A DNA stretch of 37,528 bases from positions 1 to 37,528 of the IMG/VR virus record IMGVR_UViG_3300012933_000191. The stretch is one strand, 5' to 3'. This stretch comes from a virus. Its lineage: Duplodnaviria; Caudoviricetes. The translations under genes and the position numbers were made by a program. The notes under the pieces were generated by a model. It was not told where the DNA came from. It saw only the letters and a list, made by a program, of their open reading frames with translations, and did not search any database. Each line of letters opens with the position of its first letter. Positions within the stretch are counted from its first letter, which is position 1. This document shows, piece by piece, positions 5,225 to 36,976 of the stretch.

Positions 5225-5395
5225 ATGAAACAAACCAAGAAACAATCAGCCAAGGTGGGTAAGGTGATGCATGAATATAAAACAGGCACTCTTCACTCAG
5301 GCAAAGGTGGCAAAGTGGTCACTTCTCCTAAACAAGCCATAGCCATTAGCCTGTCAGAAGCAGGTATTTCAAAGAAAAAGAAGAAAAAGGCTTGA
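5225..5395 (+). CDS. Small basic protein (DUF6496-like); absent from the ORF track
   Basis: MKQTKKQSAKVGKVMHEYKTGTLHSGKGGKVVTSPKQAIAISLSEAGISKKKKKKA*; KVMHEYK.GTLHSG...KQAIAI.LSEA pattern. Confidence 0.75.
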   Translation: MKQTKKQSAKVGKVMHEYKTGTLHSGKGGKVVTSPKQAIAISLSEAGISKKKKKKA

Positions 5396-5420
5396 CAAAA
5401 TACCTCTATGGTGCTATAAT
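5392..5420 (+). promoter_or_regulatory. Consensus sigma70 promoter for tail genes
   Basis: TTGACA(5392-5397)-17 nt-TATAAT(5415-5420) with extended -10 TG. Confidence 0.9.
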
Positions 5421-13631: not shown

Positions 13632-13647
13632 GCTGTACCAAGCAACT

Positions 13648-13679
13648 AAAAAGGGGACTATTAAGTCCCCTTTCTTTTT
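13648..13679. terminator. Bidirectional intrinsic terminator at the convergence of both arms
   Basis: AAAAAGGGGACT-ATTA-AGTCCCCTTTCTTTT, with an A tract before and a T tract after. Confidence 0.9.
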
Positions 13680-13857
13680 ATCCCTCTAAGTCGTAGAAGT
13701 CTCCAATGTAGATGGAGAAGAAGGGAATCTTAATTAAAATCCCTTCAAAAGCCACCACTTCTTCCTCTTCTGTATCATCGGCTATAACAATGTGGCAAAT
13801 GTCATCGTTATATTCAATGTCAAAGCCAATACCAACACGTAGGTTAAATACTATCAC
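13678..13857 (-). CDS. Hypothetical acidic protein
   Basis: ORF track 13678..13872; GTG start at 13857 after AAGGAAG. Confidence 0.6.
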   Translation of the reverse strand: MIVFNLRVGIGFDIEYNDDICHIVIADDTEEEEVVAFEGILIKIPFFSIYIGDFYDLEG

Positions 13858-29466: not shown

Positions 29467-29494
29467 ATTGTACCTTGTAATGACAATCTGTCAA
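29467..29494 (-). promoter_or_regulatory. sigma70 promoter for the middle/replication genes
   Basis: Minus strand TTGACA-16 nt-TACAAT in the intergenic gap. Confidence 0.65.
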
Positions 29495-30393: not shown

Positions 30394-30510
30394 TCAAATG
30401 CTCCACATTGGTGCATCAGGCAGGGTTGCCCTTTGCTGTTGTTCATATTGCCTCACCTGTTCAGGGGTCCAAGGCTTCGCAGGGAAAGAAGGGAAAGGCC
30501 ACGCTGTCAT
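30394..30510 (-). CDS. 38-aa peptide with WPFP motif; absent from the ORF track
   Basis: MTAWPFPSFPAKPWTPEQVRQYEQQQRATLPDAPMWSI*; GAGGAG RBS; ATGA overlap. Confidence 0.6.
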   Translation of the reverse strand: MTAWPFPSFPAKPWTPEQVRQYEQQQRATLPDAPMWSI

Positions 30511-31399: not shown

Positions 31400-32107
31400 T
31401 TAAACAACAAAACCTGTAGTGTCACGTTTTGCAGCGCCCTTAGCATATAGGCCTACAATAACCCCTTGATTATCTAAATGTCTCACATCACTGTTATCAC
31501 CTGACACCACGTGCATACCCTGAAACACCACTGGAATGCTGGCTAGCGTCCTAAAAACAACTGCTAAGCGCATTCCCTTAGCCTTAGCCTTTGAGACATA
31601 AGGGGAAAAGCCACTCACACCACTGTATGAAAATGTTAAATCATAATTATCGGGTATGTTCTTACGGTTTGCGTCCTTCGTATAGTCATAGAATTGAACA
31701 TTAGGAAAGGCTTCAAAAATGTTTGCATGTGATTCAAACGGGACATTTTCCCAGCGAATATCGGACGTGCCGTTAAGTCTAACCAATGGGGTTAGCCCCT
31801 TGCGCTCTGCTTTTTTGATCAAGGCCTTAATGTTCTTAAACAATTGGGCCATAAAAGCATCCCGTGCTTCATAGAAAAACAATGTCTTGTCTATGCGGCT
31901 TTGTTGCACATTGTTAAATGCACCACGTCCCGCAGTGTATAAACATGCTTTAGCACACCCAGCTTTTTCGGCCATTGAACACGTATTGTATTTTGTGGTG
32001 TTTGCAGGTGCTAGATAGAGAATGCCAGTTAGATAACCCAGCTTTTCCCCTTTTACTGTTTTAGTATCGGCACTAATGGAAAGAAGATTTTTAGATTGTT
32101 TGAACAT
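31400..32107 (-). CDS. Gp88-like Cys-motif protein (radical-SAM-like fold, inferred)
   Basis: LYLAPA..C.....GC...CLYTAGRG, VRLNGTSDI, VQFYDYTK, LTFSYS and GD.SD.R..D motifs. Confidence 0.75.
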   Translation of the reverse strand: MFKQSKNLLSISADTKTVKGEKLGYLTGILYLAPANTTKYNTCSMAEKAGCAKACLYTAGRGAFNNVQQSRIDKTLFFYEARDAFMAQLFKNIKALIKKAERKGLTPLVRLNGTSDIRWENVPFESHANIFEAFPNVQFYDYTKDANRKNIPDNYDLTFSYSGVSGFSPYVSKAKAKGMRLAVVFRTLASIPVVFQGMHVVSGDNSDVRHLDNQGVIVGLYAKGAAKRDTTGFVV

Positions 32108-32270: not shown

Positions 32271-32441
32271 TTAGTAATTGTAAGCCTTAGCGCCAAGAGC
32301 CTTAGCCATTGCCTTAGCTTCGGGCTTAGTGGTAAAGAATAATTCTGTCTCTTGGTCTACAATGCTTGGTGATGTGCTAATGATTAGACAGTATTTGAAA
32401 CCGCTAGATTTGCGTGCATTGAATATGTGGGCGTATTTCAT
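32271..32441 (-). CDS. First early gene, hypothetical (56 aa); absent from the ORF track
   Basis: MKYAHIFNARKSSGFKYCLIIST...KPEAKAMAKALGAKAYNY*; followed by a GCCC-TTCG-GGGC hairpin (32253-32264). Confidence 0.6.
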   Translation of the reverse strand: MKYAHIFNARKSSGFKYCLIISTSPSIVDQETELFFTTKPEAKAMAKALGAKAYNY

Positions 32442-32482
32442 AGTGAGTCACTTTGAAGGTTTGGTTAGGATAGTTAATATAT

Positions 32483-32499
32483 AGCAAACAGTGTGCCAA
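32483..32499 (-). promoter_or_regulatory. sigma54 (RpoN) promoter facing the early operon
   Basis: Minus strand TTGGCACACTGTTTGCT = TGGCAC-N5-TTGC with exact GG-N10-GC spacing; ~40 nt upstream of the first early ATG. Confidence 0.8.
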
Positions 32500-32585
32500 C
32501 TCTGCTTTTGTAATGCTTATTGTTTATTTACTTATTATTCTCTAACATTATTAAACCTTTTATCTTCTTGTGCCTATTATTTAAG

Positions 32586-32643
32586 CGCCTTATATTGGTG
32601 CATCAATCACTATTGTGGTGCATTAATGCACAATGATGGTGCT
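32586..32643. promoter_or_regulatory. Three NtrC-type enhancer boxes
   Basis: CGCCTTATATTGGTGCA (32586), ATCACTATTGTGGTGCA (32606) and TGCACAATGATGGTGCT (32627) vs consensus TGCACCA-N3-TGGTGCA; 20 and 21 bp apart. Confidence 0.75.
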
Positions 32644-32648
32644 TTTGG

Positions 32649-32665
32649 TTGGCATAGAATGTGCT
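32649..32665 (+). promoter_or_regulatory. Second, rightward sigma54-like promoter
   Basis: TTGGCATAGAATGTGCT, GG-N10-GC. Confidence 0.55.
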
Positions 32666-32754
32666 TATGCTTGGGGTTTGTGTGCTATGTGTGTGCCTAT
32701 TAGGTGTCTAATAGGTGTCTAATAGGGGTGCATCATAGACCCTCACACCTAGCC

Positions 32755-32960
32755 TGTGGATAACTCTGTGGACAACCTGTGGATAACTTTTACTGACTAA
32801 CGAGTCATTAAGGCCAATGCGAATGATTATCAATTAGGGGCGGGGGAGGGGACAAGGGTGGGTGAACTTTTGGTGTACCCTCCGAGATACAAAAAAGAGA
32901 GAAACTGACTAAAAAGGTTGGTTATTAATAAGGGACAGGTTGTGGATAACTTGTTGATAA
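32755..32960 (-). promoter_or_regulatory. Five co-oriented DnaA boxes in two clusters
   Basis: Plus strand TGTGGATAA (= TTATCCACA) at 32755, 32778 and 32941; one-mismatch copies TGTGGACAA at 32767 and TGTTGATAA at 32952. Confidence 0.8.
32816..32834. promoter_or_regulatory. Fur box-like site
   Basis: AATGCGAATGATTATCAAT vs AATGATAATNATTATCATT (3 mismatches). Confidence 0.6.
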
Positions 32961-33015
32961 CATTAAAGAAATTGGTAAAACATGCTAAGTTAGTAACCAC
33001 TAACATAAATAGTGC

Positions 33016-33044
33016 TTGACAAACAACAAAAAGTATGCTATAAT
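33016..33044 (+). promoter_or_regulatory. Consensus sigma70 promoter for the packaging genes
   Basis: TTGACA-17 nt-TATAAT with extended -10 TG. Confidence 0.9.
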
Positions 33045-33249
33045 GAAGACATAGTAAGTAATTAAGGAAGACTTACTGGATGACCACTAAGGATGGTTAC
33101 ATTAATGTAGACCCTCTATGTCTTAGAAATAAACATAATAATGTTAATAACAAATATGCCTCTATCTCCTAGGAGAACATTAAAGTAAGCCTTAATTCCA
33201 TTCTGGACTGTTGGTCCATAGAAGCTGTCCTGAATAGCTATAGATGTTT

Positions 33250-33302
33250 TGTTATAAACATGTTATATTTTTATGCTTGTTATAAACAGGCTGTTATAAA
33301 CA
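33250..33302. repeat. TGTTATAAACA x3 upstream of terS
   Basis: Exact copies at 33250, 33278 and 33292; a fourth exact copy at 177-187. Confidence 0.85.
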
Positions 33303-33312
33303 ATAGGCCCAT

Positions 33313-33702
33313 ATGGACACCCTAAACACTGAAATTAAAAAGAGAGGCAGAGGTCGTCCCAAAAAGGGAGAGATTGTTGCCAAGAAGAAGCCCGGCAAAC
33401 TGGGCAGACCCCTAGGAGAAGCTGGCATCATTGCTGAATATAGAGCAAGGATGTTAACTAGCCCTAAGAGCAAGCTTGTCTTGGAGAAGGTGTTTGATGC
33501 AGCCCTAGAGGATGGTCATCCACACCAAGCAGCAGCTTGGAAGCTTGTTATGGACCGTATTGTCCCTGCCAGTGCTTTTGATCCCCAGAAGGCTGGAGGA
33601 GCTAAGCCAATGGTAAACATCACCATTACAGGGGTTGGAGGAGAAACCACCATTGTTGGTGAAACAGGTGATGTAGAGGACGTGGAGTTTAAGGATGTCT
33701 GA
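33313..33702 (+). CDS. terS: Terminase small subunit (putative)
   Basis: 129 aa directly upstream of and overlapping terL; KRGRGRPKK N-terminus; HQAAAWKLVMDRI.P. Confidence 0.75.
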   Translation: MDTLNTEIKKRGRGRPKKGEIVAKKKPGKLGRPLGEAGIIAEYRARMLTSPKSKLVLEKVFDAALEDGHPHQAAAWKLVMDRIVPASAFDPQKAGGAKPMVNITITGVGGETTIVGETGDVEDVEFKDV

Positions 33703-34948
33703 ACTTAAGATTGAACTCCTCCCTTGGCAGCAGAAGGTATGGAATGATGATACACGTTTCAAAGTGGTTGCTGCTGGTCGTAGAACAGGAAAGTCTAGAC
33801 TAGCTGCCTATTTGCTCATTGTTAACGCCTTGCAGGCAAACAAGGGCCATGTGTTTTATGTTGCTCCAACACAAGGACAGGCCAGAGACATTATGTGGCA
33901 AACCTTGTTGGAGGTGGGCCATCCAGTGATTAGTGGAAGCCATATTAACAACTTACAGATTAAGCTTGTTAACGGAGCCACCATTAGCCTTAAAGGAGCT
34001 GATAGACCAGAAACAATGCGTGGTGTCTCGTTGAAGTTTTTGGTAATGGATGAATATGCAGATATGAAGCCAGAGGTGTGGGAACAAATCCTCCGTCCTG
34101 CTTTGGCTGACCAGAAGGGCTGTGCCTTGTTCATTGGAACACCAATGGGCCGTAACCACTTCTATGACCTCTATCAACATGCCTGTAAGGGAACTGATGA
34201 AACATTCAAGGGATGGCATTTCACTTCGTATGACAACCCAATTCTAGACCCAAATGAAATCGAAGCCGCCAAGAAGAGCATGTCTAGCTTTGCATTTAGA
34301 CAAGAATTTATGGCTTCATTTGAAGCACAGGGTGGTAATCTATTCAAAGACGAATGGGTTAAGTTTGATTCGGAAGAACCGAAGAAGGGTGATTATTACA
34401 TTGCTTGTGACTTAGCTGGCTTTGCAGACGAGAGCAAGGGAAGCAAGAGCAAGAGACTAGATAACAGCTCCTTTGCCATTGTTAAGACTAACGAAGATGG
34501 CTGGTGGGTTAAGGACATTGTGTTTGGACGTTGGACTGTTGAAGAGACAGCCCGTAAGCTGTTCCAAGCAGTTAAGAAGTATGAACCATTAGCCGTAGGC
34601 ATTGAACGTGGTATTGCTAAGCAAGCCGTGATGCCCTACCTAACAGACATCATGCGTAAGAATCAAACATTCTTTAGAGTGGAAGAACTTACACACGGAA
34701 ACAAGAAGAAGAGTGATCGTATTGTTTGGGCCTTACAGGGCCGCTTTGAACACGGACAGATCAAACTAAACAAAGGGGAATGGAATGCTGAGTTCTTAGA
34801 TGAACTGTTTCAGTTTCCAAACCCAATGGTGCATGATGACTTGATCGACAGCTTGTCATACATCGAGCAGCTTTCTAAACAGGCATATGTGTCTGATTGG
34901 GAAGAAGAAGAAGAATATGAACCAATTGACAGCTGGTCAGGCTATTAA
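33695..34948 (+). CDS. terL: Terminase large subunit
   Basis: Walker A AGRRTGKS, Walker B LVMDE, coupling motif IGTP, nuclease DLA...HDDLID. Confidence 0.95.
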   Translation: MSELKIELLPWQQKVWNDDTRFKVVAAGRRTGKSRLAAYLLIVNALQANKGHVFYVAPTQGQARDIMWQTLLEVGHPVISGSHINNLQIKLVNGATISLKGADRPETMRGVSLKFLVMDEYADMKPEVWEQILRPALADQKGCALFIGTPMGRNHFYDLYQHACKGTDETFKGWHFTSYDNPILDPNEIEAAKKSMSSFAFRQEFMASFEAQGGNLFKDEWVKFDSEEPKKGDYYIACDLAGFADESKGSKSKRLDNSSFAIVKTNEDGWWVKDIVFGRWTVEETARKLFQAVKKYEPLAVGIERGIAKQAVMPYLTDIMRKNQTFFRVEELTHGNKKKSDRIVWALQGRFEHGQIKLNKGEWNAEFLDELFQFPNPMVHDDLIDSLSYIEQLSKQAYVSDWEEEEEYEPIDSWSGY

Positions 34949-36947: not shown

Positions 36948-36976
36948 TTGACAAAAAGCATTACCTGTGGTATAAT
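36948..36976 (+). promoter_or_regulatory. Consensus sigma70 promoter for the head genes
   Basis: TTGACA-17 nt-TATAAT with extended -10 TG. Confidence 0.9.

Follow-up and report, generated by a model that had tools for sequence, protein, structure and literature searches.

What are sites for so many host regulators doing in a gap between the genes of a small lytic phage? We analyzed positions 1-37,528 of IMGVR_UViG_3300012933_000191 (37,528 nucleotides; hereafter the window). The phage is uncultured and podovirus-like, and the window covers most of its genome. The minus strand, from 32441, has genes for metabolism and replication (family A polymerase, primase-helicase, ribonucleotide reductase, thymidylate synthase), and the plus strand, from 33313, has those for structure and lysis. 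The region studied, 32442-33312, lies between them. It was originally predicted to be a control panel of host-regulator sites, functioning as (a) one integrated sensor of host physiology, (b) a DNA sponge that titrates host proteins, or (c) a first-injected end where host proteins protect or ratchet in the DNA. We found that the panel is not one logic gate but three things: probable ends, a predicted early promoter, and a cassette. In several lineages of related phages the cassette holds different sites for host proteins, which are swapped freely among close relatives. Our tentative reading is that the region could well be a decoy sponge in a predicted terminal repeat, flanked by a nitrogen-linked early promoter and a sigma70 packaging promoter.

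Host-regulator sites in the gap and in related phages

All of the panel elements were present in the predicted order, spanning 562 bp (32483-33044). We compared them to 3000 dinucleotide shuffles of 32442-33312. Consensus sequences for sigma54 and NtrC were from PMC8743547 and that for SlmA was from PMC3020112; Fur was scored in its 7-1-7 form, and IHF by its consensus. Motif identities were carried over from Escherichia coli and may not match those of the host. The region has three perfect DnaA boxes, compared to a mean of 0.02 in the shuffles. None of the 3000 shuffles had this many, and there is no perfect DnaA box in the remaining 36.7 kb of the window. The other sites were reached in 5 (perfect sigma54 site), 1 (two NtrC 17-mers with at most three mismatches), 4 (perfect sigma70 promoter), and 56 (Fur 7-1-7 box) of the shuffles, and sigma54, NtrC, DnaA, and Fur sites jointly in none. 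That is, the DnaA, sigma54, NtrC, and sigma70 sites are well above chance for shuffled AT-rich sequence. No such Fur box was found elsewhere in the window.

Some of the individual assignments had to be changed. Five DnaA boxes were originally listed. Three are co-oriented on the minus strand at 32755-32786, with spacings of 12 and 11 bp; those at 32755 and 32778 are perfect and that at 32767 has one mismatch. The fourth (32941-32949) is perfect. The fifth (32952, one mismatch) overlaps a perfect IHF consensus (32947-32959) that had been overlooked, such that two DnaA boxes and an IHF site overlap within 32941-32960 (minus strand). The TGACT-N4-AGTCA palindrome (32794-32807) is present, and its description as TetR-like was a guess. 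It was reached in 1 of 3000 shuffles, a value that is post hoc because the motif was read off the same sequence. The Fur box (32818-32832; two mismatches) is the best in the window. The G-tract (32837-32851, plus strand) is a conserved part of a family-wide, terminus-like motif. The SlmA-like site is a 20-mer at 32985-33004 that is, by eye, identical at 14 of 20 positions to E. coli SBS17, one of the SlmA-binding sequences (SBS). It is weak alone: the 20-mer pattern was reached in 104, and the 12-mer in 756, of the 3000 shuffles. The SBS is the 12-bp palindrome GTGAGTACTCAC, in which G1, T2, A4, and G5 are critical (PMC3020112); the window has three mismatches to it, not above chance, and the related locus L002 has one. 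Better copies are present in relatives, with near-consensus SlmA-type sites in L002, L093, L098, L095, and L001. The panel ends with a perfect match to the sigma70 promoter consensus (33016-33044, plus strand), ahead of the packaging operon.

Many of these motifs recur in related phages. We searched for relatives with the large terminase (TerL), the primase-helicase, and DNA patterns, and found 175 loci that share an anchor upstream of the predicted small terminase gene (terS), in which a G-tract is followed by GTACCC and an A-run. Pattern matches with low anchor scores and no TerS or TerL match were dropped before counting, except L252, which was retained by eye. The 130 loci with enough flanking sequence were grouped by shared 14-mers into 36 lineages, which are not fully independent, and the number of lineages with each motif was compared to the mean of 150 shuffles. 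A perfect DnaA box was present in 20 of the 36 lineages (0.37 in shuffles) and a perfect sigma54 site in 12 (0.17). We found NtrC boxes in 8 (0.31), a Fur box in 5 (0.19), an IHF site in 12 (1.63), an SlmA-type site in 6 (0.98), and TGACY-N4-RGTCA in 4 (0.03). At least one of the main sites was present in 27 lineages and at least two kinds in 15; nine had none. Thirteen control motifs were scored in the same lineages, ten for other regulators or landmarks and three reversed, and only KOPS was high. CRP, FNR, PhoB, NrdR, PurR, matS, CtrA, Chi, and the three reversed motifs were at background, as was LexA at one mismatch (2/36). The motifs thus recur non-randomly across the family, but their combinations differ between near-identical phages.

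Several other explanations for features of the region were considered and rejected. The G-tract could be read as KOPS, and GGGNAGGG was present in 23 of the 36 lineages; this count is uninformative because the loci were chosen by their G-tract. A hidden gene was not supported: there are only short open reading frames (ORFs), the two longest of which (70 and 58 amino acids) have no PHROGs match. Nothing in the region came near Rfam thresholds for structured RNA. Chi sites as end protection also failed. The window has six Chi octamers (3869, 10081, 10597, 27158, 34500, and 36227), none in the region and all aligned with transcription, an orientation that may reflect codon use.

Predicted genome ends and a swappable cassette

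The two ends of the phage genome likely meet in the gene-free gap. Conserved motifs bracket a predicted repeat with a G/C-tract inside, as in T7-type junctions, and by eye the junction resembles those of T7 and phiEap-1. The anchor in the window (GTACCC-N6-GATAC-A-run; 32872-32897, plus strand) has a predicted terminase cut near 32876. A degenerate direct copy of the anchor (32725-32749, plus strand) forms a second boundary, with a cut predicted by analogy near 32730. Two and a half 11-bp tandem repeats (32701-32729, plus strand) adjoin this boundary, and L002 has a similar run. Most lineages have a second look-alike motif ~110-290 bp left of the anchor; none was found in the clade of L207. 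Perfect IHF sites tend to be on the other side of the anchor, with 9 of 12 located +40 to +79 bp to its right. The cos region of lambda (cosB) also has an IHF site near the cut.

Together with the ends of several contigs, the motif pair indicates that a direct terminal repeat is probably present. Its predicted position in the window is ~32730-32876 (~147 bp). Contig L014 starts with a sequencing adapter joined at -10 of the second motif. L041 starts at -9 and L089 at -8 or -10, depending on the alignment, and L116 ends at -9. The end of L134, a contig of the L014 assembly, is at the corresponding position (-12) of the anchor, and the two have 113 identical bases in common. Other observations argue against such a repeat. 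The opposite end of L014 is also joined to an adapter, at an internal place, so its adapter-joined start is not specific. Of the 20 contig starts located up to 340 bp from the anchor, only 2, by our reading, hit the motif position, and only 2 of 5 mapped early-arm ends are on motifs. The premise of model (c), that the sites are at a genome end, is nonetheless probably right as to location. In that case, both ends, and not only the one injected first, would have the DnaA, Fur, and palindrome sites. Here and below, what is said of sites inside or outside the repeat is based on the listed site positions.

Between the two motifs is a cassette that, depending on the lineage, holds DnaA, sigma54, Fur, SdhR, or TGAC-palindrome sites, and these are swapped freely among close relatives. 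The clearest case is that of L078 and L079, which have identical TerL. One of the two has seven DnaA boxes and the other has three sigma54 sites and a Fur box; the flanks align and the interior does not. L093 and L098 have a second TGAC palindrome in place of the three DnaA boxes of the window. L198 has five tandem copies of the SdhR motif (as printed in PMC4494728) left of the anchor; SdhR motifs are also left of the anchor in L022 and L029. In the L207 clade (L207 and L217), the G-tract is accompanied by three SlmA-type sites, and a perfect LexA box is also present, all between about -165 and -50 relative to the anchor. One of the SlmA-type sites in L207 is identical to SBS17 at 18 of 20 positions. 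The LexA box is a single-lineage observation because LexA sites with one mismatch are at background. Other tandem repeats occupy the slot in L020, L256, L003, L259, and L232, lineages with few known sites, and may bind further host proteins.

We also placed the motifs on a TerL tree with 43 rows. The presence of at least two DnaA boxes required 15 changes, compared to 14.3 for shuffled labels, a comparison that is weakened by the truncated contigs among the rows without DnaA boxes. The sigma54 label required 8 changes, compared to 14.6 when shuffled.

The predicted sigma54/NtrC promoter and the flanking genes

Only the sigma54/NtrC part of the panel has promoter geometry. The -24/-12 element at 32483-32498 (minus strand), with its GG and GC, matches the consensus perfectly, as no other in the window does, and is predicted to be the promoter of the early operon. 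Next to it is an AT-rich spacer (32499-32585, 75% AT) and then the NtrC-type boxes (32586-32643), a predicted enhancer ~124 bp from the sigma54 element, within the ~100-160 bp upstream at which tandem boxes are found at NtrC-activated promoters. Of the three boxes originally described, those at 32606 (three mismatches) and 32627 (two mismatches) were confirmed and the leftmost, at 32586, is only a good half-site. The spacer of the window lacks an IHF site of the glnHp2 type, the best match having two mismatches; L012 and L211 have a perfect one. A second sigma54 element (32650-32665, plus strand; one mismatch) faces the terminus with no gene close behind, and is also present in L093, L098, and L095. 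An NtrC-type 17-mer with one mismatch is found within a small early ORF (30399-30415).

The position of the perfect element is consistent with a role in early transcription. It is 41 nt from the ATG of the first early gene (32271-32441, minus strand), which encodes 56 amino acids and has only three close homologues. The corresponding distance is 35-53 nt in 10 of 19 loci checked. In the circular relative G002, the single perfect sigma54 site is at the same spot as in the window. The first leftward sigma70 match better than 9 of 12 positions is at 29494, leaving the sigma54/NtrC module as the only good candidate promoter at the start of the early operon. The distance from NtrC boxes to the sigma54 site is 116-127 bp in four of the nine lineages that have both, although three of these four are close kin, which lessens the weight of the agreement; in the other five it is 71-189 bp. 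Not all lineages have the module: NtrC boxes are missing from most, and in some there is a good leftward sigma70 match. Because the module is outside the predicted repeat, it would be at the early end only. A distant clade (L211, L215, and L221) has a sigma54 site, a perfect IHF site, and a pair of GTGACA-N5-TGTCAC-type palindromes about -150 to -95 from the anchor. These pairs are likely sites for another enhancer protein. PilR was considered for this role, and a literature search found nothing to support it. The sigma54/NtrC block itself had only short chance matches to cultured phages.

The other flank begins with the predicted small terminase (33313-33702, plus strand), assigned by position and a basic N-terminus with no family match, followed by the large terminase (33695-34948, plus strand). 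Three TGTTATAAACA repeats precede terS (33249-33302, plus strand) and are not kept family-wide. A 30-amino-acid ORF downstream of the sigma70 promoter (33080-33172, plus strand) was not seen by eye in L002. In the early arm, 31400-32107 (minus strand) encodes a member of the GP88 family (PF17338) that has a C-x7-C-x3-C motif and may be an iron-sulfur protein; several relatives have GP88-like proteins close to the start of the early operon. The two gene arms meet near 13650, where by eye there is a strong two-way terminator-like hairpin (13645-13680).

The original prediction treated the window as the genome of a small lytic phage. The window is incomplete as a genome: the 65 ORFs scanned in it do not include a capsid gene, and in G002 (39,939 bp) the capsid gene is just beyond the position matching the window's end. 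The failure to recognize an integrase, RNA polymerase, or repressor in the window was substantiated in relatives. Tyrosine integrase (PF00589) was found in none of five near-complete relatives, in which controls were detected, and the 49 ORFs of at least 70 amino acids scanned in G002 matched no family of RNA polymerases, sigma factors, or repressors. Neither integrase nor repressor families were found in scans of the window or of these G002 ORFs, which argues against a temperate phage or plasmid-prophage. Our searches found no close cultured relative; the best cultured TerL matches are ~36-44% identical over part of the length, and those of the portal 21-26%. Four matches in genome bins, from unrelated taxa and likely binning strays, were not used to assign a host.

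Decoys, the alternatives, and known systems

A single integrated sensor, model (a), is not supported by the family: combinations are swapped between near-identical phages and nine of the 36 lineages have no main site. Model (b), the sponge, may fit the swappable cassette best, although we hold this view tentatively. The trait that the interchangeable sites have in common is that they are predicted to bind host proteins, which act in replication, division, iron, or carbon flux. On plasmids, DnaA boxes titrate DnaA and raise the initiation mass (PMC5835720), and multicopy SBS lower tenfold the excess of SlmA that blocks colony formation (PMC4117426). Together with these precedents, the common trait favors decoys. 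Cultured T7-like phages also have DnaA boxes at their ends: the deposited terminal repeat of phiEap-1 (195 bp) and that of Kp7 (238 bp) have five perfect ones each, and that of T7 has none. The phiEap-1 array is resembled by 34 records.

Based on the geometry of the promoter, we suggest that host sigma54 polymerase and phosphorylated NtrC would start the early operon on entry, and early expression would thereby be tied to the nitrogen status of the host. By analogy with multicopy plasmids, each new genome copy would then add DnaA, Fur, SlmA, sigma54, or SdhR sites that drain or relocate these proteins. Host replication starts might be delayed, division hindered, and genes for iron uptake or the tricarboxylic acid (TCA) cycle freed. 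Terminase, aided by IHF, would cut at the two look-alike motifs and generate the genome ends. A broader notion is more doubtful: that terminal repeats of small lytic phages are exchangeable, protein-free takeover modules, swapped like auxiliary genes, with a nitrogen-gated start of infection from sigma54/NtrC. Decoys in such modules would drain DnaA, SlmA, Fur, SdhR, or sigma54, stalling host replication and division and freeing iron and carbon flux.

Several findings are difficult to reconcile with simple decoys. The 36 representatives have 56 perfect DnaA boxes, all in one orientation, and 25 of 49 spacings between neighboring boxes are 11-12 bp. A plain sink needs neither co-orientation nor phasing, and thus a structured DnaA complex is suggested. 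Titration of NtrC is not obviously helpful to a phage, and SBS plasmids still required extra SlmA (PMC4117426). Because decoys do not account for the strict orientation and phasing of the DnaA boxes, functions in protecting the ends and in replication initiation retain some probability.

The first of these is the less improbable, although we consider it unlikely. A tight-binding host protein near the DNA ends would shield them from exonucleases or end-sensing defences, or anchor or ratchet the DNA, and its identity would be of minor importance. The sites are interchangeable and crowd the predicted repeat (43 of the 56 perfect DnaA boxes are 41-160 bp left of the anchor), and the uniform orientation with 11-bp phasing fits a DnaA filament. 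DnaA boxes were also proposed, in silico, to hold T5 DNA during injection (10.1101/866236). The lack of a DnaA box in the T7 repeat, like the nine lineages with no main site, counts against an end-binding function. CRP and FNR sites are not enriched, and SdhR, SlmA, and sigma54 are local or scarce regulators, poorly suited to instant capping. DnaA arrays are also present in T5-like, actinobacterial, and microvirus genomes. We noted four to six perfect boxes at the ends of the T7-like phages phiEap-1 (L081 71-174), Kp7 (L360 63-222), A7 (L359 22-135), and ZK1 (L082 19-198), and tandem matches in single-stranded DNA microviruses (H75, H79, H82, and H129) and in the last 110 bp of Arthrobacter phages (H45-H49).

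It is improbable, in our estimation, that all sites feed one decision, as a sensor or copy-number timer in which the bound proteins delay early transcription, the late sigma70 promoter, or cutting by terminase until the host is in the right state or genome copies exceed the proteins in number. We saw no phage repressor or sigma factor even though the late promoters are perfect sigma70 matches, and the -35 has an SlmA-type site 12 bp upstream, which L001 has in a similar place. Sigma54 holoenzyme without an enhancer can repress (PMC8743547), and Spo0A in phi29 and CtrA provide precedents for phages that respond to host regulators (PMC9437464). However, no site overlaps a promoter core, positions of sites relative to promoters vary among lineages, and combinations are freely swapped. 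A single logic gate is unlikely because its inputs are exchanged between near-identical phages. The structural arm has two further perfect sigma70 promoters (5392-5420 and 36948-36976); neither has a nearby perfect DnaA or sigma54 site or a good Fur box.

An origin is somewhat less probable again. A phage that encodes a polymerase and a primase-helicase, but no RNA polymerase, might open the duplex at the repeat with host DnaA and IHF. The phased, co-oriented boxes with an IHF site are as expected for an oriC-type element, and scans of the window and of G002 ORFs found no phage initiator or RNA polymerase. However, a DnaA array is not present in all members: a perfect box is missing in 16 of the 36 lineages, phages with identical TerL differ, and T7-like phages with their own RNA polymerase also have arrays. 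The cumulative GC skew has its minimum at ~32000, but this coincides with the switch in gene direction. An origin also leaves the Fur, SlmA, SdhR, and sigma54 sites in the same slot unexplained. The origin in PMC11512268 is only predicted, by software. Finally, it is very unlikely that the sites are neutral or bound by phage proteins, with repeats that grow by slippage and pick up scraps of host promoters: the region is rich in short tandem repeats and non-coding space is scarce elsewhere, but several host consensus sites of unrelated kinds are matched perfectly, reversed controls are at background, and DnaA arrays recur in unrelated phage families.

If the preferred reading, decoys in a terminal repeat, is correct, then a layer of host takeover is written in non-coding DNA and missed by gene-based annotation. 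The uncultured family concerned is large, with ~2200 stored stretches that match its terminase patterns. The reason for DnaA boxes in the terminal repeats of phages is an old question that is now testable in small cultured T7-like phages. The sigma54/NtrC promoter, if it works, would tie lytic infection to nitrogen limitation, and motif sets may hint at the hosts of uncultured phages.

Parts of this arrangement have counterparts in known systems. The early promoter has the layout familiar from E. coli glnAp2- and glnHp2-type promoters: a -24/-12 element, an AT-rich spacer, and tandem 17-bp NtrC boxes ~100-160 bp upstream. In contrast to these, it is on a lytic phage, ahead of uncharacterized genes, and has no consensus IHF site in the spacer. 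Cobaviruses are also ~40-kb podoviruses with two converging arms, and have direct repeats of 159-173 bp in an ORF-free gap with a conserved G+C-rich end; host-regulator sites are not mentioned for them in the portions of that report available to us (PMC6775973). No cobavirus was among the best 40 TerL or the 30 listed portal matches, and there was thus no sign in these of kinship to cobaviruses or Zobellviridae.

T5, like the window phage, is lytic and has DnaA boxes in a non-coding part of its terminal repeat. Its injection-stop (iss) region has eight, which were proposed, in silico, to hold the DNA during injection (10.1101/866236). It differs in having a 10-kb repeat and an arrangement fixed in all 25 phages compared, whereas in the window family the predicted repeat is ~110-310 bp and the content, including sigma54, Fur, SlmA, and SdhR sites, is swappable. 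The titration of DnaA by datA and plasmids is similar in that co-oriented DnaA boxes are found by an IHF site and multicopy sites drain or relocate DnaA or SlmA (PMC5835720, PMC4117426), as would be the case for the window phage. However, datA needs IHF between boxes 2 and 3, whereas the IHF site in the window overlaps two boxes and is ~160 bp from the main array. Boxes flank an IHF site in L003 and L095.

Our literature search, mostly without subscription papers and supplements, found no multi-regulator arrays or swappable repeats in phage termini and no sigma54/NtrC phage early promoters. Sites for single host regulators in phage DNA are already known: Spo0A in phi29, LexA in GIL01, and CtrA in lytic deferment (PMC9437464). 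As is predicted for the window, phage DNA in these cases reads host proteins that the phage does not encode. Each case, as described there, involves one regulator per phage group and is tied to a promoter. In contrast, the window family has several regulator sites, mostly promoter-free and exchanged between sister phages, and it is this swapping within one slot that the window family contributes.
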